A stretch of 64,000 nt of DNA from Oscillospiraceae bacterium (GTDB lineage: Bacteria > Bacillota > Clostridia > Oscillospirales > CAG-272). The stretch spans positions 35,303 through 99,302 of the forward strand of contig SVQZ01000003.1 in NCBI GenBank assembly GCA_015065105.1, written 5' to 3'. Position 1 is the first letter of the stretch. Each line of letters begins with the position of its first letter. This document shows, piece after piece, positions 4,891-31,156 of this stretch. Made by a program: the position numbers and the translations under genes. Below the pieces are notes generated by a model. It had not been told where the DNA came from and ran no database searches. It worked only from the letters and a program-made list of their open reading frames with translations.

Positions 4891-6162
4891 TTATTGCAAA
4901 ATATAATCACTAATACAGTCATACCAATGGACAAACTTTTCGTCATTTACAGAATAGTTTTCATTATTGGGTAGCATTTCCGACCATAGCTTTCCGTAAT
5001 GCTTATTTGCCCAATCGTTTTTGTTGAATCTACGCCATAACACAGTTCTGCCGTTTTTATCTATATAGTGTTCGGTCAGAACTCCTGAAATGAAGTATTC
5101 AATCAAACATATTGTGTCATAAGCTTTATTCTCAAATTCAATATTGTAACGTCCAACCGCATCCCTTATATTTTTTGAGGATGAAATGCTGATACTGTTT
5201 CCGGTACGTTTTATTATACCTTGTGAGGTTATATTGGTCTCGTATCCGCAGTTATCGTCACCATAGCTCCAATCTGTATCGAAAGCATCACCGTCAAGAA
5301 ATGTTGTAATTCTTTTTACTCCGTTTTTGTCGGTATAACATTCTCCGAGCCAGCGACAGTATTTGTCGGCGAGCTGTGCGTAGTAAATAGTTTGTGCGGG
5401 GGTCATACCATCGTCATTGATAGAATTAAATTCAGTCAGTATTTCCACACCTTCTATTCCGTGAATGTAGGCGGTTGATGTGACCTTTGAAGAAACCGTT
5501 TCGGCTAATTTCCTATCCGATATATAATAGGTCGCCCATTCGATTTTTTCTCCGTTTTTGGGGATGATAAACCAATTTGGCAATTCTTCAAACTTTATCG
5601 AAATCATTGGCTTATCGGTAGGTGTTATGGTATATTCGGGTAATTTATGCGGGAATTGTGTCATAACCTTTTCTCCTTTCATAGTAGCATGATGAGGATA
5701 ATTTCTTTTGAATTTTTCTCGCGCATAGTACAAGCGGCTTTTAACGGTGCCCAAGGGTATAGATAAAAGCCTCGAAATTTCATTTTGCGAAAGTCGTTCA
5801 TTGTAATAAAGGTCAAGTATTTGTTTTTCTTTAACCCCCATAGAGTCTAAGGTGTCGCAAACCATACTTTCGGTTATATCCACAGAGCTTGTCCCCAATG
5901 CTTTTTCCGAAAGAGAATCAAGAGGGATATGTGCATCTTTACTCTTTTTGCGGTAATAGTCATTTACCTTATGCTTTGATATACCTATAAGCCAGGGCTT
6001 AAAGGAATCAATATTATTTAAGGTTTTGAATTTCATAGTAGCAGTGAGACATATATCCTGTATTAAATCCTCCCGATCATGAGTGTTGTTCACTCTGAAA
6101 TTAACGTAACGCTGAAGATAAACGAAATTTTCTTGCAGCAGCTTTTCAAATTCACTTTGCAT
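4891..6162 (-). CDS. ECF-type sigma-70 factor with a ~260-aa C-terminal extension of unknown function
   Basis: AAGGAGGTGA RBS. Region 2 (DREDLIQDICLTATMKF...WLIGISKHKVNDYYRK) and region 4 HTH (LSQNEISRLLSIPLGTVKSRLYYAREKF) occupy the first ~160 aa. The remaining ~260 aa have no long hydrophobic segment. Confidence 0.8.
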   Translation of the reverse strand: MQSEFEKLLQENFVYLQRYVNFRVNNTHDREDLIQDICLTATMKFKTLNNIDSFKPWLIGISKHKVNDYYRKKSKDAHIPLDSLSEKALGTSSVDITESMVCDTLDSMGVKEKQILDLYYNERLSQNEISRLLSIPLGTVKSRLYYAREKFKRNYPHHATMKGEKVMTQFPHKLPEYTITPTDKPMISIKFEELPNWFIIPKNGEKIEWATYYISDRKLAETVSSKVTSTAYIHGIEGVEILTEFNSINDDGMTPAQTIYYAQLADKYCRWLGECYTDKNGVKRITTFLDGDAFDTDWSYGDDNCGYETNITSQGIIKRTGNSISISSSKNIRDAVGRYNIEFENKAYDTICLIEYFISGVLTEHYIDKNGRTVLWRRFNKNDWANKHYGKLWSEMLPNNENYSVNDEKFVHWYDCISDYILQ

Positions 6163-6232
6163 ATCCTCACCTCCTTACAGATAGCTTTGAAAACGTTTTC
6201 GTATAAATAGTCGAATGATAGGAGCAAAAGGT

Positions 6233-7300
6233 TCAATTATCGCTCTTTTCTTTTAGTATATTTTTTATTTTTAAAAATCCGGGCTCATCAATGATACTCT
6301 CAAAACAATTTAAACGGTCATTTAGATATCCGTAAAATGTTGTATAAATACTTCGAGTATCTTTTTTTCGGATGTCCTTTATATCCGAGGACAGGGTGTT
6401 TACCAAAAGGGAAGAATGCTTTATATTATCAAATTCTGACATTTTGTCAAAATGATAAAGCATTTTCTCCAGCTCCTCAACAGCCTGATCCTTTTCTTCC
6501 ATAACGGCGCTGTCCTGCGCCATACGAAAGCACAGCCTTCCCATACGGTCATGATCCATATAATCAAAATCGGAATCCTCATGTATTATATGGAAAATAT
6601 CATACAGCTTTTTGCATATGATATGTTTTTGACGGGGAGTATAATGACCGTTGTCAAGGTATGCCAAGCTGTTCGCATATAGAAACATATTATTGCATAT
6701 TTCTTTAAAGTATTTCTGACAATGAAGGATCATTTCTTTGCCGTCTAAAATATGAATAAAAAGATCTTTGTTTGAGGGTATCATTCCTGCATATCTTAAT
6801 GCTTCACTGTGGTTATTGTTTTCTTCATGGGTCAAGCACATCCATCTGATCGCATGATAACGCTTGTCAGGGTCGTTGCTTGATATCAATCTTTCTCCAA
6901 GGTCAACAATTTCATTATAACATTCATTTTCCCGTGTTATCTTTAAGACCCTCATGAGCTGATACATCACAGTCTCATCATTAGGGTATTTTTTTATCAT
7001 AGACCTGCAAAGCTCTAACCTTTCTTCATTTTTACCCTGATTATACAAAGCGTCGCATTCTTTTTCGAAATCATTGATTTCCTTTGCACGTTTGCTTTTG
7101 GCAATATCAATTTCAAGCAGTATGTCTGCGCTTACCTCAAATATATTTGCTAAAGTCGGTAGTTGTGAAATATCGGGGGCGGTACGGTTGCACTCCCATT
7201 GGGAAATCGTACTCGCAGAGACACAAAGCATATCCGCAAGCTGCTCCTGTGTATAATGTTTCTCGTGTCTTAAATTCCTTATTACTGTTCCGATCGACAT
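6233..7300 (-). CDS. XRE-family HTH regulator with helical-repeat (TPR-like) C-terminal domain, paralog 1
   Basis: GGAGG RBS. N-terminal HTH (TQEQLADMLCVSASTISQWECNRTAPDISQLPTLANIFEVSADILL). The C-terminal ~280 aa are rich in helical repeat-like sequence. Confidence 0.8.
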   Translation of the reverse strand: MSIGTVIRNLRHEKHYTQEQLADMLCVSASTISQWECNRTAPDISQLPTLANIFEVSADILLEIDIAKSKRAKEINDFEKECDALYNQGKNEERLELCRSMIKKYPNDETVMYQLMRVLKITRENECYNEIVDLGERLISSNDPDKRYHAIRWMCLTHEENNNHSEALRYAGMIPSNKDLFIHILDGKEMILHCQKYFKEICNNMFLYANSLAYLDNGHYTPRQKHIICKKLYDIFHIIHEDSDFDYMDHDRMGRLCFRMAQDSAVMEEKDQAVEELEKMLYHFDKMSEFDNIKHSSLLVNTLSSDIKDIRKKDTRSIYTTFYGYLNDRLNCFESIIDEPGFLKIKNILKEKSDN

Positions 7301-7417
7301 GGTAGCCTCCGTTTTTTGATTTTCAAAAGCACTTTTGTGATTATATTATACCTTGGATATATCAATTTTGCCATATAATATTTTGATATTTTAATATAAG
7401 CGGTGCTTATTATTAAA

Positions 7418-7618
7418 CTACGGCGGTGAATAGGCTTTGAATAGCAAATTGCAGTTTGTAACCTTATAGGGAAGTCCGTTAATATTTCCCGATACCATAA
7501 CAGAGTTCTTGTTTTGATAGAACCTGACGTCACCGAACAACTGCGGTGCCTCCTTGCCGCCGCGTATCAAAGCAATCGCATGAGGATATGTACCCCGTCT
7601 TTTCATAGTTATCACCAC
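7418..7618 (-). pseudogene. Possible N-terminal remnant of a Cu/Zn-superoxide-dismutase-like gene
   Basis: The 66-aa ORF contains AIALIRGGKEAPQLFGDVRFYQNKNSVMVSGNINGLP. This resembles the first beta-strands of clostridial SodC-like proteins from memory. The metal-binding FHIHE region is absent and the ORF stops early. Confidence 0.3.
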
Positions 7619-7699
7619 TATACAGTATATGTAAGGCTATGCTTTTAGCAATAACAGTAAAATCACTGTATTGGTGAAAAAAACTCTCTGAACGTGATA

Positions 7700-7728
7700 T
7701 TGTAATTTTGATTTTAACATGATAAAAT
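7700..7728 (+). promoter_or_regulatory. Sigma-A-type promoter candidate for the 7798 regulator gene
   Basis: TTGTAA (7700-7705), 17-nt spacer, TAAAAT (7723-7728), with TG at 7720-7721 one base upstream (extended -10). Confidence 0.4.
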
Positions 7729-7797
7729 ATATTCAGAAAGAAGCGCTGCTTTCAATATAGGGTTTGAATGCTCACCCTAAAATGAGAGGAGTTTTTT

Positions 7798-8883
7798 ATG
7801 AAACTGAATATTGGTGAGAATATAAAAAGAATGAGAAGGGAAAGGGAAATAACCCAAGAGGAATTTGCTGAGATACTGGGTGTCTCATGTCAGTCTGTTT
7901 CCCGTTGGGAAAAGGGGATATGCTATCCCGATATAGAGCTGATCCCCACTATTGCTGCATTTTTCGGTATATCGGCGGATAAGCTGATGGGAATAGACGA
8001 ATCCGCCGAAAAAAGTGCAGTTGACAGATATTTAAGTGATTTCCGGGCGGCTGTATCTATGGGTAATATTGATGAATGCATTCGTATTGCCCGAATGGGA
8101 GTCGCAGAGTTTCCGAATAATTACACGCTATTAAACAAGCTGATGTATGCTCTCTTTTTATCGGGAAGTGATGATGCCGATATCCCGGATTGGGAAGAGA
8201 ATAAGAAAAAATACGATGCGGAGATAATTGCTATCGGTGAGCGTATTATTAAATATTGCAATGATACCGAAACCAAATACGAGGCAACCGAGCGTCTTGC
8301 CTTTCATCATTGTGAAATGGGCAGAAGGGATATGGGACGAAGTATCTATGAAACACTTCCTTCAATAACGTATTGTAGAGAAAGCGGGATATGGTGGGCT
8401 CTGTCCGAGGAGGAAAAGCTGTCCCATACAAGGATGTATATTCATAGAGCATATTATATCTTATTTGATGCGATATACAGATTGAAGGGGTTGCTTCCAT
8501 TTGAGGATTCTGTCAGGGTTATCGATAAATTAAAGGCTCTTGATGAGCTTATATATGACGGCAAGGGTGCTAACCTTACATGGAGTGCGGCAAGACTGCC
8601 CTTTTACCGTGCAACTTACCTTATAAAATCAAATCGCTTTGATGAAGCGATAGAGGAGTTGAAAGTATCTGCCGAAATGGCGATAGCCTTTGATAACCGA
8701 CCCGATGAAATAAAGGTGTCATCTCTTCTGCTCGGAGAAAGTACACGAAGCAAAAACGACTTTGAAACTGCGGATTCAAGGCCCTTGTGTGAAATTTTAA
8801 GAGATTCATGGTTGAGTGATAAAAGCTTTGATCCGATAAGAAATAGGAAAGAATTTAAAGAGATTGTGGAAAGATTAGCATAA
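7798..8883 (+). CDS. XRE-family HTH regulator with helical-repeat C-terminal domain, paralog 2
   Basis: GAGGAG RBS. HTH is ITQEEFAEILGVSCQSVSRWEKGICYPDIELIPTIAAFFGISADKLMG. Confidence 0.85.
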   Translation: MKLNIGENIKRMRREREITQEEFAEILGVSCQSVSRWEKGICYPDIELIPTIAAFFGISADKLMGIDESAEKSAVDRYLSDFRAAVSMGNIDECIRIARMGVAEFPNNYTLLNKLMYALFLSGSDDADIPDWEENKKKYDAEIIAIGERIIKYCNDTETKYEATERLAFHHCEMGRRDMGRSIYETLPSITYCRESGIWWALSEEEKLSHTRMYIHRAYYILFDAIYRLKGLLPFEDSVRVIDKLKALDELIYDGKGANLTWSAARLPFYRATYLIKSNRFDEAIEELKVSAEMAIAFDNRPDEIKVSSLLLGESTRSKNDFETADSRPLCEILRDSWLSDKSFDPIRNRKEFKEIVERLA

Positions 8884-8913
8884 AATATGCCCCGCAACTG
8901 CGGGGCATATTTT
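8882..8913. terminator. Perfect 14-bp-stem palindromic bidirectional terminator that overlaps both convergent stop codons
   Basis: AAAATATGCCCCGC-AACT-GCGGGGCATATTTT. Two bases of the plus-gene TAA (8881-8883) lie in the left arm, and two bases of the minus-gene stop (8912-8914) lie in the right arm. Confidence 0.8.
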
Positions 8914-10072
8914 ATACTTGTGTTTTTTCTACCCATTCATTCCAACGGGGATCTGCTTTGATTTCTTTTTCCACTTGACTATGATCCGGATGGCACCACA
9001 TAGGCCAATCTGCAGGTAAGCTTTTGGCAATGCTTTTTGATATGCCTGTTTCATATTTTACAAAAGAAACAAGGGGTGCGGTAAAATAATGTTCTTTTCC
9101 GTCACATATTTTTTCCAATGCTCTTGCGTGCTTTAAGCTTTCGTCAAGGGATATAAAGGCATCGTCATGGTATCCCCGCTCCCATTGAACTCTTGAAAGG
9201 TAAAGATACAATTCTATAAGATCACCATGATACTTTCCCATGTTTCCGTCGTCACATATTAAATAAAATAAAGAAATTGCACCCTTGATCTTTTCAATCG
9301 GCATATCACTTTCAAAATTATGTTTGTTTGTGATCAAACCATAAACAAGCTGTGCGGCAAACTGTCTTGCAGTTTTTAAAAGAAAATCTCCTATGTATTT
9401 TGCTTCCTCTTTACCGTCTGAGGCAGCAACGAGAAGCAGTTCTCTGCAGTTTTTCAGCTCGGGCGCTTTTTTAGCATATTCAATGGCTTTGTCATGCTCG
9501 CCCATATTTCTGTAAAGCGAAACAAGAATACTTATTGCTTTTGTAATTGTTGAGTTGTCGGCGGCATTATTAACGAGATATTCACAGAGCTTGATCGATT
9601 CTTTCCAATATTCATTTGATCTGTGAATATCATAATTATGCCTGATAAACCCTTCTTCATCATAATATAACCATTCCTTATACCGTCTCCATCCCGCTTC
9701 CGAAAGGGTATCAGCCAAGGTTATAAGTAACCGTTCGTTTTGTGGGAACTCAGCTAACCCTTCTCGCATGATGGTAATACATTCCTCAACCCATTCATCA
9801 TCGCTCCGCGATTTAATACCGAATGATTCAATTTTATTGATGATAACATCAATTTTGCTTTCTCTGTCGTTATGATATCCAAATAATTCATCAATGGTAA
9901 TTCCAAAGTAATTAGCAATAGACGGGATAAGCTCCATATCGGGATAAGCTCCGTTTGCCTCCCATCTGGAAACAGCCTGAGACGTTACTCCTATTGCATC
10001 TGCAAGAGCTTCTTGGGTGCGTTTGTCACGTTTGCGTAATTCCTTTATTTTATCTGCTATTGTAAGTTTCAT
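8912..10072 (-). CDS. XRE-family HTH regulator with helical-repeat C-terminal domain, paralog 3
   Basis: GGAGG RBS. HTH is RTQEALADAIGVTSQAVSRWEANGAYPDMELIPSIANYFGITIDELFGY. Collinear with paralog 4 along its whole length. Confidence 0.85.
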   Translation of the reverse strand: MKLTIADKIKELRKRDKRTQEALADAIGVTSQAVSRWEANGAYPDMELIPSIANYFGITIDELFGYHNDRESKIDVIINKIESFGIKSRSDDEWVEECITIMREGLAEFPQNERLLITLADTLSEAGWRRYKEWLYYDEEGFIRHNYDIHRSNEYWKESIKLCEYLVNNAADNSTITKAISILVSLYRNMGEHDKAIEYAKKAPELKNCRELLLVAASDGKEEAKYIGDFLLKTARQFAAQLVYGLITNKHNFESDMPIEKIKGAISLFYLICDDGNMGKYHGDLIELYLYLSRVQWERGYHDDAFISLDESLKHARALEKICDGKEHYFTAPLVSFVKYETGISKSIAKSLPADWPMWCHPDHSQVEKEIKADPRWNEWVEKTQV

Positions 10073-10180
10073 AAAATAACCTCCGTAATTAATATCACCG
10101 GTGTGATTATATTATAGCTTACTGAATAAATAAATTCAATTATCAATTAGTTGTTTTAAATCCAAGTATCCCTTGGATCA

Positions 10181-10209
10181 AAAGTAAATGTCCCGCACAT
10201 AGCGGGACA
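10181..10209 (-). terminator. Rho-independent terminator of the 10214-11383 gene
   Basis: TGTCCCGC-ACATA-GCGGGACA stem-loop. On the minus strand it is followed by TTTACTTT. Confidence 0.6.
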
Positions 10210-10213
10210 AGGA

Positions 10214-11383
10214 TCATTCAAAGCATTCTGCAAATTTGGGATTTTTGCGGATTTCATCGAGAACGTCACTCCTGAAGAATTTAAGGGTTTTGTTCCAAAA
10301 ATCGTCCATATCAACAGGGGAAAGCTCTCCTTTGGCTATAGGGTTTAAATTGGCAACCAACGGTGCTGAGTAAACGTATTCTCCGTCATTATATATGCGT
10401 ACAGATTCTTTGTAATGATCAAAAACTTTGTTGAAATAACCGAGAATGGTTTCCATACTGCCATTGTTGTTCATTTCATATTTTGTTAAATCCAAATATA
10501 AATGTCCGATTTCACCATGATAGCCTCCGCATTTTCCGTCAATAAAAATTGTTTCATAAAGCTTTATGAGGGATAAAACAACATTTTTACCGTATTCAGT
10601 GGAAGATATGTCAGGTCTTAATGCTATAGATTCACATATAGAAAACTGAAGGTTTGTAAGCAAAGCCAATATTCTTTCGTCTTGGTATCTTGCTTTTTCA
10701 TCGCCAACGGTTGCCATAGGTAAAAGAAGTTCTTTGCATATAACAATAGTGTCCTGTTCGTTTGCTAACTTTTTAGCCTTATCGTATTCTCCCATTCTGC
10801 AGTAAAGGGGTGTAAGTTGACGTATAGCTATGCTGCGATCTTCTGCATTTGGATTAGATCTGAGTGCTTTTTCGTAAACTTGAACTGCTTCCTGCCAGTA
10901 AATGTTTTTTGAATTGTATTCTACATTGTCTTCAATATTTCCCGTTACGTCATTCTTGTGTCCTTTTGCTCCGAATTTGTTCCAACCCCACATAAGAAGT
11001 GCTTGAGCTAATTTCAAAAGGATTTTGGGCTCGCCGGGAAATTCCTCTGAAGCTAAACGAAGCATATTAATGCATTCTTCAAATTCATCGGGTAAGCAGC
11101 CTTGGTACATGGTAAATCCCTGTTTTGTAATTATATCGCTTGCTTTGGTAAGAATGTTTTTGATTTTATTTTCTCTGTCATTATTGTAACCGAAAAGCTC
11201 GTCGATGCTTACGTTAAAATAATTTGCTATGGCAGGGATGATCTCTATGTCAGGATAACATCCGCCCGATTCCCAACGGGAAACAGCCTGGTTTGTTACT
11301 CCGATGGCAAGGGCAAGATCCTCTTGCTTTCGTCCGTCACGCTTACGTAATTCCTTAATTTTATTTCCAAGAGTAAGGTTCAT
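10214..11383 (-). CDS. XRE-family HTH regulator with helical-repeat C-terminal domain, paralog 4
   Basis: GGAGG RBS. HTH is RKQEDLALAIGVTNQAVSRWESGGCYPDIEIIPAIANYFNVSIDELFGY. Confidence 0.85.
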   Translation of the reverse strand: MNLTLGNKIKELRKRDGRKQEDLALAIGVTNQAVSRWESGGCYPDIEIIPAIANYFNVSIDELFGYNNDRENKIKNILTKASDIITKQGFTMYQGCLPDEFEECINMLRLASEEFPGEPKILLKLAQALLMWGWNKFGAKGHKNDVTGNIEDNVEYNSKNIYWQEAVQVYEKALRSNPNAEDRSIAIRQLTPLYCRMGEYDKAKKLANEQDTIVICKELLLPMATVGDEKARYQDERILALLTNLQFSICESIALRPDISSTEYGKNVVLSLIKLYETIFIDGKCGGYHGEIGHLYLDLTKYEMNNNGSMETILGYFNKVFDHYKESVRIYNDGEYVYSAPLVANLNPIAKGELSPVDMDDFWNKTLKFFRSDVLDEIRKNPKFAECFE

Positions 11384-11610: not shown

Positions 11611-12930
11611 ATGCAGGAGATTAAATGTCCTAATTGCGGCGAGGTCTTTCAGGTAGATGAATCAAGTTACGATTCTATAGTCAAGCAGGTAAGAGACAAG
11701 GAATTTACAAAGGAGATTGCAGAGCGCGAAATTCATTATGCCAACGAAAAGGAAAATGCCGTTAAGCTTGCAAAAGCAGAGAGCGCCGAAGAGCTTGCAA
11801 GGGAGATTTCCAAAAAGGATGCCGAAATTTCAGCATTGCAGACAAAGCTGAAATCGGAGGAGGACAATAAGAAGAGTGCAGTAATTGAAGCTCTTGCGGA
11901 AAAGGAAAAAGAACTGTCAGCCAAGAGTGAAGAAATAGTAAAGCTTAAATCACAAATTGATTCTCTTGAGGCGGCGAAAAAATTAGCGGTAAATGAGGAT
12001 GATGATCGTATAGGTACCCTTGGAAGTTATAATGAATTATACAATACCTTATATAAAAAATATTCAAAAACTCATGATGTTCTTTTTTATTCCTACGATT
12101 GGCGAATGCCTTCGATAGACAATGCAAAGCTACTTGATGAGCTCGTTGATAATGAAGGCTACACCGACGTCTCTTTTATATGCCATAGCATGGGAGGAAT
12201 AGCTGCTGCACAATATTTAACACTGAGCGAGGATAATGTTGGGTCAACAGAAAAAGTTATAACAATAGGGACTCCTTTTGGCGGTTCCGCAAAGGCTCTA
12301 ATGGTGTTACAGGACGGCAGATATTTTAACTTCGCTGTAATGAAGAAGAACGTTCGCGAACTTGCATTAAATATCTCGGCGATATACGAGCTCTTGCCAA
12401 CCGAATATGCAGTTAATGCTTCCGGCGGTTATATCGTCAACAACGGGAAAATCTTTAATTTCGAGGAAAGCGTTGAATTTATTAAGGATCATGCACGTTT
12501 TGAAAAGGATAAAGATTCAAACGGAACAAATAAAACACTTTATCAAAACGCCCTTAAATCCCAATCTTCTCTTATAAGCGAAAAAGGACATATTATTGCT
12601 GACGATAGAATCGACGTATATATGATAGCAGGTTTTAATAACGAAACCGTAAAGAAAATCGTCGAAACCGATTATCTTTTTTCTGATACCGAAAGTACGT
12701 ATTTTGGAGACGGTACCGTTAGTTGCGAAAGTGCTGTTTTTTATAACGGTGAATTGTTTGATAACCCTGTATATTTCGTTGACGGTGTTGATCATAGAGC
12801 TCTCGTAAAGGATGAATCTACTCTTGAACTTATAAACTTATTGATAGATATGGGTGATGATATAAGTGAAAAAGAGTATGATAATAAAAAGATAGTGAAA
12901 TATGAGGATATAGATTTAAAAGAAGAATAA
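11611..12930 (+). CDS. Chimeric-looking protein: DUF2130-like zinc-ribbon plus coiled coil fused to an LCAT/PGAP1-like alpha/beta-hydrolase (lipase) domain
   Basis: GGAGG RBS. The N-terminus MQEIKCPNCGEVFQVDESSYDSIVKQVRDKEF plus ~100 aa of E/K-rich coiled coil matches DUF2130 N-termini from memory. From about aa 128 come YSYDWR and the nucleophile elbow FICHSMGG. Confidence 0.8.
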   Translation: MQEIKCPNCGEVFQVDESSYDSIVKQVRDKEFTKEIAEREIHYANEKENAVKLAKAESAEELAREISKKDAEISALQTKLKSEEDNKKSAVIEALAEKEKELSAKSEEIVKLKSQIDSLEAAKKLAVNEDDDRIGTLGSYNELYNTLYKKYSKTHDVLFYSYDWRMPSIDNAKLLDELVDNEGYTDVSFICHSMGGIAAAQYLTLSEDNVGSTEKVITIGTPFGGSAKALMVLQDGRYFNFAVMKKNVRELALNISAIYELLPTEYAVNASGGYIVNNGKIFNFEESVEFIKDHARFEKDKDSNGTNKTLYQNALKSQSSLISEKGHIIADDRIDVYMIAGFNNETVKKIVETDYLFSDTESTYFGDGTVSCESAVFYNGELFDNPVYFVDGVDHRALVKDESTLELINLLIDMGDDISEKEYDNKKIVKYEDIDLKEE

Positions 12931-12940: not shown

Positions 12941-14257
12941 ATGAAAAAATATATTGCATTAATTTCTATATTTTTTGTTTTAAGCACTTTTCTTACCTCA
13001 TGTAAAATTGAAGACAAGCCTGCGGTTAATTCTCTTGATTCTGCGGTGTTAGATAACGAAACTGATGAAGCAAATAAGATCGAGGATCTTATGTTTGATG
13101 ATGTTTCTGTTGAATTTCAAAATAATAATGATTATCTGCCCTTTGGAATAAATGATGAGATGAACGAGCTGATCAAAAATTATTTTGTAAGTTATTATAA
13201 ATCGCTCGGATCGCTTGAGGATCATGATATGTCCGATTATTTTACAAAGGACAGCGATTACCAAGCTTGTATTGTAAATGAAATGATTTCTTATCAGAAT
13301 GGAATCAGAAAAAACTTTACATATGATATGCAGTATAAAAAAGCGAGTGTCGGTGTTACTTACAGATCTCTTATTGAACTCGAAGACGGTTATAAGATAT
13401 ATCTTTGTGAAAATAATGCAATGAGCTTCAACTACATACAGAATATTACTTCGTATACCAGCGATGTTGAGCATTATTTTACACTTATAGAGGAAGACGG
13501 AAAATATCTTTTAACCGAGCATTCTGAAATAAGCGGAGTTTATGAGCTTATAAAGAGTAGCTTTGATAAATATACAAGTGATCTTTACGATTATAATACC
13601 GAAGAGATATTCGGTATAGTAAAGGACTATTTTGTTTCAGTAACAACAAAAGAACTAGATGCAGTAAATAAACAAAGGGAAGAGTATAACAGCTCTCCCG
13701 AGAATTATCAGACCGAGCTTTACGCTGATAATGAATATGATGTTGATGCTGCACTTGAATATTCATATGAATGGGCAGGGAAGACTGAAGCGAAAAGAAA
13801 TCCTAATTTCGGTGTTTATGACATCTACGGCGGTAACTGCAACAATTTCACGTCCCAATGTCTTTTTGCAGGCGGAATACCAATGGACCTTCAAGGGGTT
13901 CAATGGAAATGGTACGGAGAAAGCGTTAATTCTAACGGAGGAGCTTACGGAAGAAGTCCCAGCTGGGCGGAATGTGATTATTTCTATGCTTACTGTACAG
14001 AAAACGAAGGCTACGGTCTTGTTTGTGACTATTCCTCAAATATTTACAGCGGACGCCCCGGGGATCTTATTCAGTATATAGTTGACGAGACCGATGCTGT
14101 ACACACGGTTATCATTACAAAGGTAATATATGATTCGGATGGTAATGTTGTTGATTATCTTATAAATTCAAATACAACTGATAAGGTTGACAGTCCTATG
14201 AGTGCGTATGGATATACTAATTTCAGATTAATTAAAATAATTGGATGGAATAATTAA
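12941..14257 (+). CDS. Lipoprotein with C-terminal putative amidase (Amidase_6-like) domain
   Basis: AAGGAGG RBS. Signal peptide with lipobox LTSC. The C-terminal GGNCNNFTSQCLFAGGIPMD and GDLIQY...HTVIITKV motifs are typical of the putative-amidase domain, from memory. Confidence 0.75.
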   Translation: MKKYIALISIFFVLSTFLTSCKIEDKPAVNSLDSAVLDNETDEANKIEDLMFDDVSVEFQNNNDYLPFGINDEMNELIKNYFVSYYKSLGSLEDHDMSDYFTKDSDYQACIVNEMISYQNGIRKNFTYDMQYKKASVGVTYRSLIELEDGYKIYLCENNAMSFNYIQNITSYTSDVEHYFTLIEEDGKYLLTEHSEISGVYELIKSSFDKYTSDLYDYNTEEIFGIVKDYFVSVTTKELDAVNKQREEYNSSPENYQTELYADNEYDVDAALEYSYEWAGKTEAKRNPNFGVYDIYGGNCNNFTSQCLFAGGIPMDLQGVQWKWYGESVNSNGGAYGRSPSWAECDYFYAYCTENEGYGLVCDYSSNIYSGRPGDLIQYIVDETDAVHTVIITKVIYDSDGNVVDYLINSNTTDKVDSPMSAYGYTNFRLIKIIGWNN

Positions 14258-14278
14258 GGAGTTAAAAATTCACTCCTT

Positions 14279-14800
14279 TCAGACTGTCGAAAAAGTCGGT
14301 CGGACGTGTGAAACTAAAATATTAAGAAGTTAAACACTCCTACCAACAAACACCTGAGAAATAATTTATAAATCTCCCAATATAATTGAATAAGCATTCA
14401 AAAGTGGCATAAACGTCGAGTTTATGCCACTTTTTCACACTTTTCAGTGAAAAGGAGCTCTACCTTACTTAGTAAGCCTACGTCCCCTTTTCACGAAAAC
14501 CTACGCTTCCTTTTTCGAAGCCTGACAGACTGTCGAAAAAGTCGGTCGGACGTGTGAAACTAAAATATTAAGAAGTTAAACACTCCTACCAACAAACACC
14601 TGAGAAATAATTTATAAATCTCCCAATATAATTGAATAAGCATTCAAAAGTGGCATAAACGTCGAGTTTATGCCACTTTTTCACACTTTTCCGTGAAAAG
14701 GAGCTCTACCTTACTTGGTAAGCCTATGTCCCCTTTTCACGAAAACCTACGCTTCCTTTTTCGAAGCCTGACAGCGTGTCGATACTTTATCGACACGATC
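14279..14800 (+). mobile_element. Structured non-coding repeat element (MITE-like): one 3'-truncated copy (246 bp) plus one full copy (~275 bp) head-to-tail, flanked by a duplicated terminator hairpin
   Basis: 246-bp period (AGACTGTCGA at 14281 and 14527; GTGGCATAAAC at 14404 and 14650). Flanks TAAGGAGT(T/G)AAAAATTCACTCCTT at 14255-14278 and 14801-14824. An inverted homolog lies at 55081-55354. There is no ORF. Confidence 0.65.
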
Positions 14801-14827
14801 TAAGGAGTGAAAAATTCACTCCTTTTC

Positions 14828-15352
14828 TTATATAAAATCTTTTTTAATATGATCAATTGCACCCTTTTCAAGTCTTGAAACTTGGGCTTGAGAAATGCCA
14901 ATCTCTTCTGCGATCTCCATTTGGGTTTTGCCTTGGTAAAAACGCATTGCTATAATAGATTTTTCTCTTTCGTTCAATTTCTTTATCGCCTCGTTTAACG
15001 CAATACCCTCAAGCCAGCTTTCGTCGTTTGAACTGTTATCGCTGATTTGATCCATAACGTATAATGAGTCACCTGCAGATCCGTCATTGTATACCGGTTC
15101 GAATAATGATACCGGATCAACTATTGCCTCAAGCGCGTTTGTGACGCGTTCCTTTGTAGCATCTATTTCGTTATCTTTCAAATATTTCACAATATCGTCT
15201 ATATTAGGTTCTTTATCCATTCTTTTTGATAACTCGTCCTTTGCCCAAAGGGCATGATAAGCAAGATCCCGGATACTTCTGCTGACTCTGATCATGTTAT
15301 TGTCTCTCAAATATCTTCTGACCTCGCCTATTATCATTGGAACGATATGAGA
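14828..15352 (-). pseudogene. sigG: 5'-truncated SigG/SigF-clade sporulation sigma factor gene (regions 2.4-4 only)
   Basis: VPMIIGEVRRYLRDNNMIRVSRSIRD, DPVSLFEPVYNDG..LYVMDQISD and FYQGKTQMEIAEEIGISQAQVSRLEK closely match B. subtilis SigG from memory. About 70 N-terminal residues (regions 1.2-2.3) are missing. Similarity ends near 15345-15365, where an AT-rich insert begins. Confidence 0.7.
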
Positions 15353-15382
15353 AAGTAGAAATTCTAAAAAGGAGTTTCTACA

Positions 15383-15934
15383 ATGACCAGAAAACAAGCA
15401 TTACAGAGCGTTATTTCTGCAGTATCAAACAATCCTAAATATGCTGAAGAAATTCGTATTCTACAGGAAATCAGTGATGAGCTACCTCTTATCCATTGGT
15501 CTGATAGCTCAATTAGAGACACGGTTGAACAGTTTATTGTTGATAATGGTAGAGTACCAACTACATCTGATTTCAAGAAAAAAGGAATGCCACCGCATCC
15601 GGTTATCAAGCAGAAATACAAGATCACATTAGGTGAATGGTTGGAGAAATACTATCCTGTTCGAAAACCTACATATGAAGAATTAAAAGAGAAATATACA
15701 AACCTATTTGTTGAGGATTATAAGAGAATTAAACCAAAAAGTCAATATGAATTTAATAAGTTTAAAAGTCGTGGAACTAAAGGATGGCAAACTGTTGCAA
15801 AATATTATGAAGTAAAGTCATGGAGAAATTTAATAAAGAAATTGGATTTACCATTATATTTTGATATGGCTCGAGATCATAAACCAGTACAATTGAAAGT
15901 TAATTTCCATTTAGATTATGATTTTCATGATTAA
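15383..15934 (+). CDS. Hypothetical protein with two repeats resembling homing-endonuclease-associated (HNH_repeat-type) helical modules; probably from a mobile element
   Basis: AAAGGAG RBS. The repeats are IRDTVEQFIVDNGRVPTTSDFKKKGMPPHPVIKQKYKITLGEWLEKYY and a second around KSRGTKGWQTVAKYYEVKSWRNLIKKLDL. The region is visibly more AT-rich than its flanks. Confidence 0.55.
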   Translation: MTRKQALQSVISAVSNNPKYAEEIRILQEISDELPLIHWSDSSIRDTVEQFIVDNGRVPTTSDFKKKGMPPHPVIKQKYKITLGEWLEKYYPVRKPTYEELKEKYTNLFVEDYKRIKPKSQYEFNKFKSRGTKGWQTVAKYYEVKSWRNLIKKLDLPLYFDMARDHKPVQLKVNFHLDYDFHD

Positions 15935-15954
15935 CACAGTATTTAATCTTATTT

Positions 15955-15987
15955 ACAGCACCTCTTGTGGGGTGCTGTTTTATTTAT
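15955..15987 (+). terminator. Rho-independent terminator
   Basis: ACAGCACC-TCTTGTGG-GGTGCTGT followed by TTTATTTAT. Confidence 0.7.
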
Positions 15988-16142
15988 ATAAAAATGATAT
16001 GGTGAAATATTTTTTAATTATGTATCCTTCATCCTTAATGTAAAGGGACATTAAGGACTATATCGTCATATTATTTAATTTTGTTTATAAAAATCGGACA
16101 TCAGTCCGAATTGTTGTCCCTATAAGAGAAAGGACAGCAAAA

Positions 16143-16436
16143 ATGGCACGTATAATTAAAAAGAATATGCAACAGAGTATCTCTGATGATGAACAAGTTT
16201 GGATTACAAGGATGGGTTTCCTTGTTGAAATACAGTCGTCATCTGTCAGAGGGAAGGGTGGTAAGATTAAAAAGATTGATAAAGAACACTTTGTCGATAC
16301 TGACACAGGTGAGGTGAAGAAATTTAAGAAGCACAGCAAATCTTCTCGAAAAGAGAATTATAATTCTATATATAAGACACTCCGTACTGCACTCTACGGT
16401 TATATGATGGTGATATATTGGTGCGAGCGAAAATAA
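16143..16436 (+). CDS. Small basic hypothetical protein in the AT-rich insert, possibly an N-terminal fragment of a mobile-element replication-type protein
   Basis: 97-aa ORF. The motif VDTDTGEVKKFKK..SRKENYNSIYKTLRTAL weakly recalls N-termini of plasmid/ICE replication proteins. This is from memory only and is unverified. Confidence 0.3.
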   Translation: MARIIKKNMQQSISDDEQVWITRMGFLVEIQSSSVRGKGGKIKKIDKEHFVDTDTGEVKKFKKHSKSSRKENYNSIYKTLRTALYGYMMVIYWCERK

Positions 16437-16540
16437 AAACACAGACATGAATTGAGTTTTCAGCGCAAAAATGATAGGATAGTATTATGCATTTTACTCT
16501 GAATTCGCTGCCACCTTCAGACAGACTTAAGAAAATAATA

Positions 16541-16569
16541 ATCCCTTTACGAATGCTTCGTAAAGGGAT
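16541..16569 (-). terminator. Rho-independent terminator of the 16574-17359 gene
   Basis: ATCCCTTTACGAA-TGC-TTCGTAAAGGGAT (13-bp stem). On the minus strand it is followed by TATTATTTTC. Confidence 0.75.
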
Positions 16570-16573
16570 TCTG

Positions 16574-17359
16574 TTATTCTGTTAAATAATCCTCGGTCAT
16601 ATAATCGGTGAAATTAGATACCAGATATTTAAGCACTCCTTCGCCGTCTTCTGGCATACTTTCGCTTGAAAGAGTGATGTATTCACCGTAATAATAGAAG
16701 TTGAGTTCTATGGATTTTCCTTTAAGGCTGTCATATTCTTCAAGGTTATTCCAGCTCGAAAGGTCGGTGATGTCGTTATAAGAGCAGAGGCTATCATAGG
16801 GAAAACGGGGAATTGTATAGACCTCTGTACTGCCGTCCTCTTTTAATACGGTCATACAATGCTCTGTGTTGGATACGGTAGTTACGTTCAGCCCGAAAAC
16901 AGTATTCCCCTCGGGCGTATGGGTGGTCTCAACATAGGAGAAGATCTCGGATCCGTAGGGCAGATCCACGGGCGTAGGCACATATTCCATAGAATTCTTA
17001 GATTCACAAGTCAGCTCCACGTCATGGTCAGGCATTGTAAATTCAATGGTATAACCCTTGAAATCGCTGTAACCCGAGCTGTTTATACGTTCACCGTCAA
17101 GGTAAAAGGTATAATCGGTGTCGGTTGCAACCATTGGAAAGTATACTCTTACGGTCTGACCTGCTTTATACGAGCTTTTAACATTTTCAAATAAACCTTC
17201 AGGATATATTACTTTATATTCTTTCTTGTTTTGAGTTTCTGTGATTGATTTTTCCGGAGCAGAAGGTTCGATTTTACGATTATTGCAAGCTGTTAAAAAT
17301 ACAAGCGTTGAAATAAGGAACAGTACAATTAATGTAATAATGAATATTTTTCCTACCAT
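16574..17359 (-). CDS. Hypothetical lipoprotein
   Basis: The ORF track starts at GTG 17368. ATG 17359 is preferred because GAGGTG lies 6 nt upstream. Signal peptide with lipobox LTAC. Confidence 0.7.
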   Translation of the reverse strand: MVGKIFIITLIVLFLISTLVFLTACNNRKIEPSAPEKSITETQNKKEYKVIYPEGLFENVKSSYKAGQTVRVYFPMVATDTDYTFYLDGERINSSGYSDFKGYTIEFTMPDHDVELTCESKNSMEYVPTPVDLPYGSEIFSYVETTHTPEGNTVFGLNVTTVSNTEHCMTVLKEDGSTEVYTIPRFPYDSLCSYNDITDLSSWNNLEEYDSLKGKSIELNFYYYGEYITLSSESMPEDGEGVLKYLVSNFTDYMTEDYLTE

Positions 17360-17511
17360 TTTCATCACCTCAAATTATTTATACCATATATAAAAAAACA
17401 AATCAATACTTTGTTTTTTGTAAATAAAAAGAATTCTTCTGTAAACAGTAGAAAAAATATTAATTATATGTTATAATATTTCAAAACGATATATGTTAAG
17501 GAGGTGTAGAA

Positions 17512-22803: not shown

Positions 22804-25800
22804 ATGAAAAGATTTTTATCTTTTACGCTTATGTTGACTATGTTGCTTCAGTTCTTGCCTGTTGTGTCAGGTGCTGTATTTCCCTTTGTGGATGTAGCAC
22901 CCGATGCATATTATGCAAGTGCGGTTGAGTGGGCTGTTGAAAAGGGCATTACATCAGGTACATCAGCTACCACCTTCTCACCCAAGATGGTGTGTACACG
23001 TTCACAGGCGGTTCAGTTCCTCTGGAATGCAGCAGGAAATCCCGAGCCTACAACAACCAACAATCTCTTTAAGGATGTTAAGTCTAATGCATGGTACTAT
23101 AAGGCGGTTCTCTGGGCGGTAGAAAACGGTATTACCAACGGTACATCCGCTACAACCTTTGCTCCCGATATGAAGTGCAGCCGTTCTCAGATAGTTACCC
23201 TACTTTGGAGAACTATGGGCTCTCCCGAGATCACGGCCGATAATCCCTTCAGCGATGTTCCCTCAAATGCATATTATCTTAAGCCTGTTCTTTGGGCGGT
23301 AGAGAAGGGAATAACATCAGGTACGGGAGGAAGTAAATTCAGTCCTCTCATGTCCTGTAGCCGTTCCCAGATAGTTACATTCCTCTACCGTTGCTTCAAG
23401 GAGGAAACTCCTCTTCCCCATGAGCACAGCTTTGGCGAATGGGAGATAGAGACTCCCGCAACCTGTAACGCTGAGGGTAAGGAAATAAGAAAATGCTCAG
23501 GCTGTGATGAAACCGAGAGCAGAGCTATTCCGAAAGTAACAGAACACAGCTACGGTGAATGGAGTGTCACTACTCCCGCAGACTGCTACAACGAAGGTGT
23601 AGAAACGCGTAAGTGTACGACCTGTGATGAAACCGAAACAAAAACAATAGAAAAAACAACTCATAAATGGAGTGCGGCTTGGATGATCAGCATTCCTCCC
23701 ACCTGTACAACCGAGGGTACTGAGATCAAGACCTGCAGCTATTGTACAGACGTAAGAAGCCGTGCTGTTGCGGCGACAGGGCATGCATGGGGAGGATGGA
23801 CAGTTACCACTCCCGCTACAGAAAGCTCTGACGGTGTAGAAACAAGAGTATGCGGTAACTGCGGTGAGACCGAAACGAGATCCATTCCTTCATTGGCTCC
23901 CGCACTTGTTATTACAACACAGCCCGCAGATACAAACGCCACACCCGGTGAAATAGTAAAATTCAAGGTTGTTGTATCAGAAGGAACTGTTCCCTATACA
24001 TATCAGTGGCAGTACAAGATCAAGGGCGGAGATTTTGAGAATATCGAAGCTGCCTTTACTTGGGCATACGGTGAGAATAAGAAAAATCTTGAAATAACCG
24101 TTGATTCGGATCAGATTCTTTACGAAAGAGTATTCCGCTGTGTTATCACAGATGCAGCCGGCAAAACTGTTACATCAAACGAAGCGGGTATAGCCGTAAC
24201 CTATGATAAGCTCGTTGTTACTATTCAGCCTAACGATGCAGTATTAGAGTCGGGTCAGATGGCTGTATTTACCGCAATGGCAGGTAACGGTATAGCCCCC
24301 ATATCTGTTAAATGGCAGTATAAGATCGGTGATGACGGTGCATGGACAGATTTTACCGAGTCTGATAACACCTGGGCGCAAGGCTATGATACATGGGATC
24401 TTATAATTGATCCTGCAACTGCCGGATCAGAAAACGATTACCGTTTCCGTTGTGTATTTACCGACTATACAGGTGATACCGTAACAACAAAGGAAGTCAA
24501 ATGTTCTGTATATAAGCATCTTAGCATAAAAACACAGCCCGAAGAAAGTAACTATGTTACGGATGGTGACAGTGTTACATTAACCGTAGCGGTTACGGAC
24601 GGACTTCCTTCATATTATTATCGGTGGTATTTCCGTATGGACGGTATGCCGATATTTGCTGAAATAACAGAAGCAGACAGTTGGGCAAGCGGTTGCAATT
24701 CATCTGATCTCAATATAACTCCTACGCAGGACATGCTGGACAGCAATCTCCGTGTTTACTGTAAGATAAGCGATGAATACGGAGACGAGGTTGACAGTAA
24801 TGTTTGTTATGTGATCAGGAGACTTGAGATAACCTACCACACCGAAGAAATGTACGCAGAGGATGGAGATCTTGTGACCTTTTCTGTAGGTGTAGTCGGT
24901 GGCGTAAAGGACTATACTTATCAGTGGTTTATGGTAAGTGATATTGAATCTGCCGCTCCTGTAAGCGAAAAGGAAACGAAATCATTACAAAATCATGATT
25001 TTACTACATATCTTTTTGCCGATGATTTTAACTATAATGCAAAATATTACTGTGTAATTGAGGATAGTACAGGTTATAAAGTAACCACACCCTATATTTT
25101 GGTCAAAGAAAATCCTTCAATTAGTATTAAAACTCAGCCGAGTAATGCAAACGGTGTTCTTGTCGGTGAAGAAGTAACCTTTAGGACCGTAGTTTTCGGC
25201 GGTACTGCTCCTTATATATATCAGTGGCAGGCGTTGGTAGGTAAGAATTATATAGACATAACAACTGCAGGTAACGGTGACTTTGGTCCGATTTACAGCG
25301 GCTATAATACCGATACACTTGCTGTGGTCTGCTCAGGAAAGGCTTTCTTTGAAACCCAATTCCGTTGTGTCATTACCGATGCCAAGGGAAAGAGTGTTAC
25401 CACCAAAGCGGTTAAGATGACAGCATCCCCCATGAGTATAGCCTCATATACTACTGAGATCGAGGCATACCCCGGTGATATGGCAACGTTCAGCGTTTCG
25501 GTCAACGGCGGTATCGGTCCCTATAGCTATCAGCTTCAGGTGAAATATGACGGAACAAGCTTCACTGATTACGATTCTCCCATACTCACATACGGTAACG
25601 GATATTTTAACAAAGAAATTACGGCTGTAATGCTTGAAAATAACGTTGAATTCCGTTGTGTTGTTACAGATGTAACAGGTGCGAGCGTGACCACAGGAAA
25701 CATTAATATTATTGAAATAGAGCCCCTTGTTATAACATCTCAGACACCAAGTGATATAGGTATTGATACAAATTCAACATTGTATCTTTCTGTTAGTGTG

Positions 25801-26613
25801 AGCGGCGGACTTGAACCCTATACCTACCGTTGGTTATACAAGAATGATGCAATGACCTATGAGAGCGAGGTTGGAACAAATAATGCTCTCTGTCAGGTGA
25901 CTACCTCAGAGATCGACTGTCAATATCACGGATATTACAGATGTATAATTACCGATGCCAAGGGTCATGTTGTCGAGAGTGATCCCATTTATTTCAACTT
26001 TGCTCTGCATGTAAGAAAGCAGACCGAATCGGTAACCGTAAACGTAGGCGAAAAAGCCTTCTTCTCGGTTACGGCTTGCGGAGGCGTAGCACCTTACCGT
26101 TATTCCTGGGAGGTGTATAACGCTAAAACAAATCGTTGGGAGGATGTAAGCTCGGCAATGTCAGGCAGAACAACAGGTTACAGCTCGTCTATTATGAGCT
26201 TCAACTTAGCCTCTTCGGATTGCGGAACGTTTACTAAATTCCGTTGCTATATAAAAGACAGCAGAGGTATCGATATTATAAGCGAAGATATCCCCCTTAA
26301 AGTTCCGTTTAGTATTGCTTCTCAGCCTAAAAACGTTGTTGCTGTAAAGGGCTCTAACTTTACCTTCAAAGGTCTTGAAGTAGTGGGCGGTGAAGGAACG
26401 CTCAAATACACATGGCAATATGCTTATACCCGTGATAACCCAAGCAGTTTTAGCAACTGTTTTCTTTCACCTGCATATTTTAAAGGCTATGATACAAACG
26501 AACTTACCGTATATTTTAATTCAGGGTTTGAAAAAGGAACCTTCCGCTGTAAGATCGAAGACGAAGTAGGAAACGTCATTTATTCAGATTACGTGTACGT
26601 AAATCTACCCTGA
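22804..26613 (+). CDS. Giant cell-surface protein: signal peptide, 3 SLH domains, 4 four-Cys repeats, 9 Ig-like repeats
   Basis: AAGGAG RBS. Three SLH repeats (F.DV....YY..AV.WAVEKGITSG....F.P...C(T/S)RSQ.V.FLW). Four 4-Cys repeats at ~23419-23895. Nine ~90-aa repeats, each with (P)Y.Y.W and (F/Y)(R/Y)C.I.D motifs. Confidence 0.9.
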   Translation: MKRFLSFTLMLTMLLQFLPVVSGAVFPFVDVAPDAYYASAVEWAVEKGITSGTSATTFSPKMVCTRSQAVQFLWNAAGNPEPTTTNNLFKDVKSNAWYYKAVLWAVENGITNGTSATTFAPDMKCSRSQIVTLLWRTMGSPEITADNPFSDVPSNAYYLKPVLWAVEKGITSGTGGSKFSPLMSCSRSQIVTFLYRCFKEETPLPHEHSFGEWEIETPATCNAEGKEIRKCSGCDETESRAIPKVTEHSYGEWSVTTPADCYNEGVETRKCTTCDETETKTIEKTTHKWSAAWMISIPPTCTTEGTEIKTCSYCTDVRSRAVAATGHAWGGWTVTTPATESSDGVETRVCGNCGETETRSIPSLAPALVITTQPADTNATPGEIVKFKVVVSEGTVPYTYQWQYKIKGGDFENIEAAFTWAYGENKKNLEITVDSDQILYERVFRCVITDAAGKTVTSNEAGIAVTYDKLVVTIQPNDAVLESGQMAVFTAMAGNGIAPISVKWQYKIGDDGAWTDFTESDNTWAQGYDTWDLIIDPATAGSENDYRFRCVFTDYTGDTVTTKEVKCSVYKHLSIKTQPEESNYVTDGDSVTLTVAVTDGLPSYYYRWYFRMDGMPIFAEITEADSWASGCNSSDLNITPTQDMLDSNLRVYCKISDEYGDEVDSNVCYVIRRLEITYHTEEMYAEDGDLVTFSVGVVGGVKDYTYQWFMVSDIESAAPVSEKETKSLQNHDFTTYLFADDFNYNAKYYCVIEDSTGYKVTTPYILVKENPSISIKTQPSNANGVLVGEEVTFRTVVFGGTAPYIYQWQALVGKNYIDITTAGNGDFGPIYSGYNTDTLAVVCSGKAFFETQFRCVITDAKGKSVTTKAVKMTASPMSIASYTTEIEAYPGDMATFSVSVNGGIGPYSYQLQVKYDGTSFTDYDSPILTYGNGYFNKEITAVMLENNVEFRCVVTDVTGASVTTGNINIIEIEPLVITSQTPSDIGIDTNSTLYLSVSVSGGLEPYTYRWLYKNDAMTYESEVGTNNALCQVTTSEIDCQYHGYYRCIITDAKGHVVESDPIYFNFALHVRKQTESVTVNVGEKAFFSVTACGGVAPYRYSWEVYNAKTNRWEDVSSAMSGRTTGYSSSIMSFNLASSDCGTFTKFRCYIKDSRGIDIISEDIPLKVPFSIASQPKNVVAVKGSNFTFKGLEVVGGEGTLKYTWQYAYTRDNPSSFSNCFLSPAYFKGYDTNELTVYFNSGFEKGTFRCKIEDEVGNVIYSDYVYVNLP

Positions 26614-26658
26614 TATCAAACAATTAAAAAATATAAACTTAAAGTTAGGAGAAAAATT

Positions 26659-27420: not shown

Positions 27421-27539
27421 GCAAACAAGAGTTTGCACCCTAAATGCATTTTGTGATCTGTAGATCACACGAGAGGTACAACGAAAGGCGATACCCTCAT
27501 AAATCGTTAAAATTCTTATGTATAAAATAGGAGGAAAAA

Positions 27540-30146: not shown

Positions 30147-30263
30147 ATTTAAATTATAAATTGTAATAAATAATAATGAAGAAATTATTGTAGATATCTA
30201 CAGCCCTCCGTATAGCTATTGAAGTTTAATAAGATAAATCACAAGACTAAGAAAGTTGTTTTG

Positions 30264-30319
30264 CGGTAACATGATATATGCAAGCACATAATCATACATA
30301 AATGTATATCATGTTACCG
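30264..30319. promoter_or_regulatory. 15-bp perfect inverted repeat upstream of the Cys-rich lipoprotein gene
   Basis: CGGTAACATGATATA (30264-30278) and TATATCATGTTACCG (30305-30319), separated by 26 nt and ending 48 nt before ATG 30368. Confidence 0.5.
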
Positions 30320-30367
30320 TATAACATGAAAAATATTTTATTGCCAAAATGGCAGAAAGGTAAAAAA

Positions 30368-30925: not shown

Positions 30926-30994
30926 AACCATCATTTAAGTCTTTTTATTCTTAAAAACTATTCCGAAAGGGAGAAAATTATTAACCAATAACTT

Positions 30995-31054: not shown

Positions 31055-31156
31055 ACTATTTTAAGTGGAGAATGACTGTGAAAAAGATTGAATATATGAC
31101 TAAGCCTTCTTGTAATTTAATCTACAACGATATTAGGAATTACAACATAGATTAAA

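Follow-up and report, generated by a model that had tools for sequence, protein, structure and literature searches.

The stretch of DNA analysed here (the window, 64,000 nucleotides (nt) of contig SVQZ01000003.1 from an Oscillospiraceae genome) carries the 3′ half of sigG, the gene for the sporulation sigma factor SigG, directly beside a short piece of foreign DNA. The break between the two is, we are nearly certain, an attachment junction (attR) made by a mobile element bearing a large serine recombinase (LSR). We further propose, as a probable history, that the fragment is the attR-side half of the native gene, that an LSR element integrated into it and was later lost by deletion, and that what is left is a young pseudogene beyond repair. 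The same codon is split in at least 98 protein clusters, and the family of serine-integrase phages that integrates in sigG is widespread and apparently undescribed.

The first-pass annotation of this DNA had described a 5′-truncated SigG-type open reading frame (ORF) at 14828-15397 that abuts foreign AT-rich DNA, and both parts of that description are correct. The ORF is present on the minus strand. A tblastn search with B. subtilis SigG matches residues 93-257 to window positions 15352-14837 (59% identity, E 9e-63), and the same query has no second match below E 0.1 in the window. Pfam detects sigma-70 regions 3 and 4 in the ORF and does not detect region 2 (PF04542). The SigG-like part runs from residue 93 to the C-terminus, and the stretch that encodes SigG itself (14828-15340) covers residues 96-265 only. 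Residues 1-95 are absent and leave the sigma-70 architecture incomplete; the number of missing N-terminal residues, first given as ~70, is corrected to ~95. This 3′ half has neither region 2 nor a usable start codon. More generally, 3′ fragments of this kind lack a conserved start codon or ribosome-binding site (RBS), and gene callers choose an internal Met, which here gives a protein of 155 amino acids (aa), P0002. The nearest full-length protein, P0001, has 265 aa, with 89% amino acid and 78.5% nucleotide identity to the fragment. It is named SigG by NCBI and comes from a metagenome-assembled Ruminococcaceae genome. Over regions 2.4 to 4 the fragment thus resembles SigG best, ahead of SigF, SigE and SigK.

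Judged by sequence and gene order, the fragment is the orthologous native sigG locus and not a paralog. Where sigG is intact (L001-L003) it is followed by an Amidase_6 gene and then by an LCAT-like gene. Both genes recur in that order in the window, which is what identifies the locus as native, and these neighbours share 75% nucleotide identity with L001 over 2.3 kb. The first-pass annotation had proposed such a synteny comparison, and had offered a choice between a dead paralog and a broken only copy. A broken orthologous copy fits, and the paralog is rejected by the match downstream of sigG. The 10 kb upstream of the intact ortholog have no counterpart in the window besides generic SLH-domain matches. 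DNA similarity to L001 spans from the stop codon to window position 15343 and ends there abruptly. The earlier estimate for the end of similarity, 15345-15365, was therefore close, with the exact crossover placed at 15339-15340.

The crossover was inferred by comparing the attL, attR and attB sequences. Seven nucleotides, GTTCCAA (15337-15343), are common to the gene and to the element arm. Positions 15341-15359 are an exact mirror image (19 of 19) of the arm found in L016, a 2-kb contig from another project in which this arm lies next to a sigG 5′ half and an LSR gene sits beside the junction. In L016 the 19 nt after the CC of the Pro96 codon read AACGATATGAGAAAGTAGA, and the window carries the identical string on the opposite strand relative to sigG. 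Combined, the P arm of the window and the P′ arm of L016 give an attP of 40 nt, TCTACTTTCTCATATCGTT-CC-AACGATATGAGAAAGTAGA, which is a perfect 19-bp inverted repeat with a non-palindromic centre. Inverted half-sites around a non-palindromic dinucleotide are the standard layout of a serine-integrase site. For the window-type element the attL sequence is TATGCAGTTCCAACGATATGAGAAAGTAG, and the rebuilt attB contains TATGCAGTTCCAATGATAATAGGCGAG. The chance probability of a 19-nt arm match at a fixed position is ~4e-12. No other copy of the arm is found in the window at up to 3 mismatches, and in GTDB species-representative genomes the arm has seven chance matches, none of them beside sigG.

L016 and the window also fit together as gene halves. 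The 5′ stump of L016 (P0121, the sole 5′ half of matching lineage) is 88% identical to P0001. Because the L016 5′ half and the window 3′ half have near-equal nucleotide identity to L001 (77.7% and 78.5%), we assign them to the same lineage. Joined at the CC, the two halves, which stem from different samples, form a 265-aa ORF that is 89% identical to P0001 from end to end and free of gaps. A scan of metagenomes with this reconstructed SigG found only intact genes of more distant species, and a search for the L016 integrase in IMG/VR found nothing. We also considered P0152 (L008) as the 5′ partner, which is similarly abundant and has an adjoining LSR gene. It was rejected, with 69% nucleotide identity to L001 against 78% for the window, and with an N-terminus in the P0078/P0033 clade; the C-termini of that clade share 64-69% identity with the window.

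How often is sigG cut at this point? Among the best 120 matches to the fragment, about a dozen proteins of other species (155-198 aa, 64-73% identity) start at (V)PMIIGE. Where such 3′ fragments have upstream extensions, these are unrelated sequence that varies by element type. The opposite search, with the first 94 residues of P0001, has almost exclusively short proteins among its best 120 matches: 98 of them run through SigG residues 1-96 to ...KFSTYAVP and then through a few non-SigG residues to a stop, and in the other 20 that bear the motif an ordinary gene runs off the end of its contig. All of the 3′ and 5′ stumps meet at the VP codon boundary. The attachment site lies within the highly conserved KFSTYA-VP-MIIGE of region 2.3/2.4, and the cut falls inside a helix. 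The tails of the 5′ stumps belong to a few recurrent types (MIIE.., MN[IV]P.. and T[IT]VP..), which indicates that elements of one type conserve the DNA immediately inside the junction.

Recombinase genes are found close to these junctions. In L008-L011 a gene on the opposite strand, within ~25 nt of the 5′ stump, encodes a 532-aa protein with Resolvase, Recombinase and Zn_ribbon_recom domains, and is followed by ArdC, methylase and restriction-modification genes. A gene with Resolvase, Recombinase and Zn_ribbon domains lies 25-75 nt from the junction in L008-L011, L016, L244-L249 and 14 of 27 IMG/VR attL loci; in L107-L110 the LSR gene is next to attR instead. The integrase nearest to that of L016 is P0243 (86% identity). 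Identical copies of P0243 stand beside three clearly different sigG 5′ sequences (L244-L246), which points to recent independent integrations. The first arm bases vary at the attL sites of these three loci (CCAATGG or CCAACGG), which hints at attP polymorphism or at a crossover point that is not fully fixed.

This evidence changes how the break is to be understood. It had been taken for an idiosyncratic truncation, and it is instead a site-specific recombination junction that serves many elements across many species. The window has no sigG 5′ half, no recombinase and no matching repeat pair, three absences reported earlier that our searches uphold, and the last two would fit random pseudogenisation, with some unrelated deletion or insertion ending inside sigG by chance. 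However, it would have to strike the same dinucleotide as in ~100 other clusters and to leave, at the odds given above, an arm that exactly mirrors one linked to an LSR gene at attL. We find it scarcely credible.

Another explanation is that the short product of regions 3-4 is itself functional, e.g. as an anti-sigma decoy. Short forms from this point are common, and the ORF is intact. In this sense a check for conserved short forms with this start, which had been suggested as a way of refuting truncation, is formally positive. The shared start is explained by the genes all being cut at one att site, and not by a functional short SigG. In addition, the N-terminal extensions are unrelated junk that differs between element types, matching 5′ stumps with junk tails exist, and no start codon or RBS is conserved. 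A working short product is in our view very improbable. We have also rejected a split intein, a trans-splicing intron and a two-piece sigma factor, since the tails are short, varied junk, the cut is inside a helix, and LSR genes with palindromic arms suffice as an explanation. A gene half supplied by the phage as a replacement was rejected because the 5′ stumps end in stop codons. One further candidate, L053, had been considered as a sigG with an insertion and is a sigE tail followed by sigG.

Phages are among the elements that use this site. In IMG/VR, sigG is split at the same codon in about 40 proviruses: 15 viral contigs have SigG residues 94-264 only, mostly at the contig end, and ~27 further contigs have residues 1-96 only, with a junk tail. 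Both halves are present in IMGVR_UViG_3300045988_092089 (56,612 bp), the 3′ half at 56,131-56,601 on the plus strand (L111) and the 5′ half near base 298 (L156). This placement assumes that L156 runs forward from base 1, in which case the two halves flank a prophage of ~55.8 kb in direct orientation. An exact copy of the attP predicted from its junctions, CCTATTGCCACTCCGATAACAATAGG (26 nt), is carried by 25 other viral contigs (7-62 kb long, the majority 50-62 kb), where it occupies varied positions beside an LSR gene and has no sigG flanks. These are free phage genomes, and integration into sigG by recombination of attP with attB is therefore demonstrated for that family. IMG/VR contigs with sigG-integrated elements range from 26 to 157 kb.

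Two of these viral contigs have further features. One free phage with a sigG-type attP encodes a sigma-70-like protein (L238, 11258-11728) with 31-33% identity to SigG in regions 2 and 4. The gene lies ~8.5 kb from attP and may be related to reported phage-borne sporulation-like sigma factors. The other, IMGVR_UViG_3300045988_120125 (L251 and L199; 156.7 kb), starts inside a P arm, continues with a gene of the same family as the 183-aa gene described below, and also has a 5′ stump with an LSR gene. It would be an unusually large element if both loci are its ends.

In the window itself, positions 15341 to ~16391 are, on compositional and homology grounds, element DNA. The AT-rich segment reported earlier is real: the guanine-cytosine (GC) content of 15341-16440 is 32.3%, lower than in either flank (38-39% on the left, 42% on the right). 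The stump of ~1.05 kb consists of the P arm, a gene for a 183-aa protein and the first 83 codons of a replication gene (rep). Homologs of the 183-aa protein, 26-27% identical (E 6.6e-14 and 1e-16), have the same position and orientation in the sigG-integrated elements L119/L252 and L251. L119/L252 also carries tape-measure and tail-fibre genes. L251 begins inside a matching arm, with the homolog at its start, and has large unannotated ORFs at the position corresponding to the L119 tail genes. Two details of the earlier description of this gene have to be revised. Its homing-endonuclease-associated repeats are not upheld, the match to Pfam HNH_repeat being below threshold (E 0.011; 16.5 bits, cut-off 26), and its AAAGGAG RBS, although real, lies ~30 nt from the crossover, beside the breakpoint and not on it.

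The small basic ORF that had been noted further along the segment also exists. Its product matches a PHROG rolling-circle initiator and has 36 homologs, many of them 280-390 aa long, that align over the first ~80 residues only. Four full-length proteins (P0363, P0365, P0374 and P0378) have PF23343 (REP_ORF2-G2P) at residues 95-199, a domain that the window protein lacks. The pairwise Rep alignment ends at residue 83, which corresponds to window position ~16391. From this stop in homology we conclude that the rep gene of the element has been cut, and the foreign segment, which had been described as running on to about 16570, is itself cut at ~16391. Neither of the two stump proteins (183 and 97 aa) has a match among GenBank phages.

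To the right of the stump lie a lipoprotein gene, two-component systems, SLH surface proteins, an O-antigen ligase, citrate synthase, ABC transporters, a GntR regulator and rnfCDGEAB, with glutamate dehydrogenase just past the window. Could this whole region be one intact element of more than 58 kb, with host-like cargo, whose integrase, like the sigG 5′ half, would lie outside the window? Elements in sigG do vary widely in size, as the IMG/VR contigs illustrate, and the surface-protein region differs between strains (L012 and L013). However, citrate synthase, the Rnf complex, glutamate dehydrogenase and ABC transporters would then all have to be cargo. Tetranucleotide usage and GC content right of the stump match the host flank and not the stump, rep is truncated at the boundary, and the region beyond resembles neither phage families nor LSR genes nor the integrase-proximal 10 kb of related elements. 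So large an element is quite improbable.

A different possibility is that sigG is split and still alive. Both halves, the LSR gene and a directionality factor would persist more than 58 kb apart, and excision at the time of sporulation, or a large inversion, would rebuild the gene in the manner of the skin element of sigK, but in the forespore. The undamaged reading frame, the apparent purifying selection and the intact P arm are all in keeping with this. So is the fixation of the arrangement across many samples: P0002 is found on at least 24 contigs from many samples, with the same neighbours in all places shown. Moreover, sigG halves beside core genes recur elsewhere (L007, and L017-L019 beside an intact spoVA operon). 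On the other side, rep is cut and no element genes follow it, and excision of a segment with citrate synthase and the Rnf operon would kill the germ-line cell. The matching 5′ half was not recovered from any of the contigs and samples with the arrangement, and there is none in the window or the next 10 kb. No full-length SigG more than 89% identical is found in ~5.8 billion proteins. Finally, GC skew keeps its positive sign across the joint and so gives no hint of a recent inversion, although this is a weak argument. We consider a live split gene unlikely. A programmed large inversion, an idea suggested by L007 and L017, was rejected as unsupported in the window, where rep is truncated, GC skew is unflipped and the partner half is missing.

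We favour integration followed by deletion. An LSR-bearing mobile element would have integrated site-specifically at the CC of the Pro96 codon (attB), parting region 2 from regions 3-4, and neither piece would make a working sigma factor. A later deletion, with one end inside rep (~16391), would have removed the integrase end of the element together with the sigG 5′ half and reached into the upstream chromosome, leaving the stump joined to ordinary chromosome. Lacking both a partner site and a recombinase, sigG could no longer be rebuilt, and would therefore be a young pseudogene. That the gene is irreparable in the window is, in our judgement, somewhat better than an even bet. The rearrangement was presumably a deletion, which is the simplest reading, and we infer that the 5′ half is absent from this genome and that sporulation has been lost.

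Several observations weigh against this history. The 3′ fragment contains no frameshift or stop, and synonymous and non-synonymous differences number 76:17 in the window 3′ half and 41:11 in the L016 5′ half. An undamaged frame, with similar ratios in both halves, means either that the inactivation is recent or that the fragment is still under selection. L016 comes from another sample and shows the type of partner, not the partner in this genome, and the absence of the 5′ half here is argued from its rarity in the protein collection. Scans of IMG/VR for a free attP of the window type gave no match. The event may also have been a more complex rearrangement than a deletion.

Table 1. Features of the sigG junction and its surroundings, in window coordinates.
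Feature	Position	Strand	Remarks
LCAT-like hydrolase gene	11611-12930	+	native downstream neighbour of sigG
Amidase_6 gene	12941-14257	+	native downstream neighbour of sigG
sigG 3′ half, native	14828-15340	-	Pro96-Ile265 and stop; rest of region 2.4, regions 3 and 4
Inferred crossover dinucleotide	15339-15340	-	CC on the sigG strand, where it opens the Pro96 codon; centre of a 19+2+19 palindrome
attR element-side half-site (P arm)	15341-15359		AACGATATGAGAAAGTAGA on the plus strand
183-aa gene	15383-15934	+	RBS AAAGGAG at 15368-15374, terminator at 15955-15978; first gene inside the P arm, reads away from sigG
Truncated rolling-circle replication-initiator gene	16143-16436	+	residues 1-83 match the N-terminus of ~300-aa Rep proteins
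Stump/chromosome joint	16392-16573		end of Rep homology, GC from 32% to 42%, terminator at 16540-16570
Bidirectional terminator	16540-16570		belongs to the lipoprotein gene at 16574-17368 (-)

Junctions of a comparable kind are found in other species. In L007, 110 bp separate the sigG 3′ half from a melibiase gene and a holB-rsmI cluster (9980-10090). In L017-L019, from a human-gut species, a single 267-aa gene stands between the 5′ half and rsmB-fmt-def-priA, with an intact spoVA operon upstream. Only ~0.1-1 kb of non-host DNA is left at the sigG half in L007 and L017 (10300-11150). These loci look like further decayed junctions, or else products of some other rearrangement.

It is useful to compare sigG with known cases of genes interrupted by prophages. 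The elements e14 and phage 21 in icd of E. coli leave a gene fragment at the end of the prophage, and the phage brings a replacement 3′ end, which keeps icd intact. The leftover fragment is like that seen at sigG; the 5′ stumps of sigG, in contrast, end in stop codons, so that sigG is truly interrupted. In active lysogeny, a prophage reportedly interrupts a regulatory gene in a surviving cell line, as is said of phi10403S in comK of Listeria and of SpyCIM1 at mutL of S. pyogenes. Reversible excision could in principle serve as a switch at sigG too, where the host process is sporulation. SpyCIM1 is also covered in a 2026 review (PMC13492144).

Other parallels come from sporulation genes themselves. 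In skin, which interrupts sigK (with SpoIVCA in B. subtilis, and as skinCd in C. difficile), a sporulation sigma gene is split in its coding region by a prophage-like element with an LSR at one end. Precise recombination restores the ORF, and degenerate, non-infectious versions exist. The window differs in having neither the recombinase end nor the 5′ half, so that excision is impossible here, and in its target, which is not a mother-cell gene. The sigK product acts in the terminally differentiated mother cell, where excision costs the germ line nothing (PMC4191935, PMC5025042). SigG is forespore-specific (PMC4191935), and the forespore becomes the next generation. SPbeta, a temperate phage with an LSR integrase (SprA/SprB), has its attB inside the sporulation gene spsM. 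It is known in free-phage and integrated forms (PMC4191935, PMC5499854), in parallel to the 25 free attP genomes of one sigG phage. Unlike sigG, spsM is a mother-cell polysaccharide gene, and its shared core is 16 bp long, whereas that of sigG is ~7 bp around the CC. Small or degenerate elements (gin, vfbin, vrin and yin) also interrupt the sporulation genes gerE, spoVFB, spoVR and yabG (PMC5595907, PMC10747680). These are mother-cell genes as well, and both gene halves and the recombinase are kept, whereas the stump in the window keeps neither.

The interrupted genes described so far (sigK, spsM, spoVFB, spoVR, gerE and yabG) are thus all mother-cell genes; excision is confined to that cell and the element stays in the spore genome (PMC4191935, PMC5595907, PMC5025042, PMC10747680, PMC13492144). 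In a full-text literature search, whose coverage leaves out most subscription journals, no publication was found to describe sigG as interrupted or as carrying a phage attachment site. The publications consulted in this search either do not mention sigG or mention it in other contexts only.

We tentatively suggest, at slightly less than even confidence, that sigG is a dedicated and widely used attachment site for diverse serine-integrase temperate phages and phage-like elements in Clostridia. A lysogen would sporulate only if the prophage leaves in the forespore, and would otherwise be blocked, which amounts to a phage switch on the germ line. The decayed junctions (the window, L007 and L017) would then mark recurrent, phage-driven and permanent loss of sporulation in gut and digester Oscillospirales. 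If true, this would be unlike the described cases, which all act in a disposable mother cell. An attachment site in sigG breaks this rule, and raises the possibilities of forespore excision with the element kept as an episome, of cured spores, or of blocked dormancy. Integration followed by decay would also be a concrete mechanism for the loss of sporulation in lineages of anaerobic Firmicutes. For annotators there is a warning: 'short SigG' proteins of ~100 and ~168 aa in metagenomes are products of att junctions and not new sigma types. Taken by itself the window is a modest result, a young pseudogene that would on the history we favour almost certainly be irreparable, and the wider pattern at the sigG site is of greater interest.

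Some further features of the window deserve a brief description. The first-pass annotation had taken the 3′ terminator of sigG for the insertion site of a structured element. Downstream of the sigG fragment, the 25-nt terminator hairpin is duplicated (14255-14279 and 14801-14825) around two tandem units of 246 nt (14275-14520 and 14521-14766) that are 98% identical. The number of units varies, with one in strains L005 and L006 and none in the relative L001. A third copy at 55086-55354, on the opposite strand, is 77% identical and keeps a 15-bp hairpin through compensatory changes. The repeat may be a small mobile repeat or a structured RNA; a search of 14100-16700 found no Rfam families.

Four paralogous XRE-type helix-turn-helix regulators of 355-389 aa lie within 4891-11383, and TPR-like tails are indicated for the two at 8912-11383. 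They adjoin a 423-aa protein with sigma-70 regions 2 and 4 and a long C-terminal extension. The relative with an intact sigG does not have this cluster at the corresponding place. Two other stretches (22804-35001 and 50795-55055) are dense in surface proteins with SLH domains, Ig domains, LRR and SprB repeats, accompanied by O-antigen-ligase-like genes. The stretch upstream of rnfC is strain-variable, with polysaccharide genes in L012 and GntR-ABC genes in L013.

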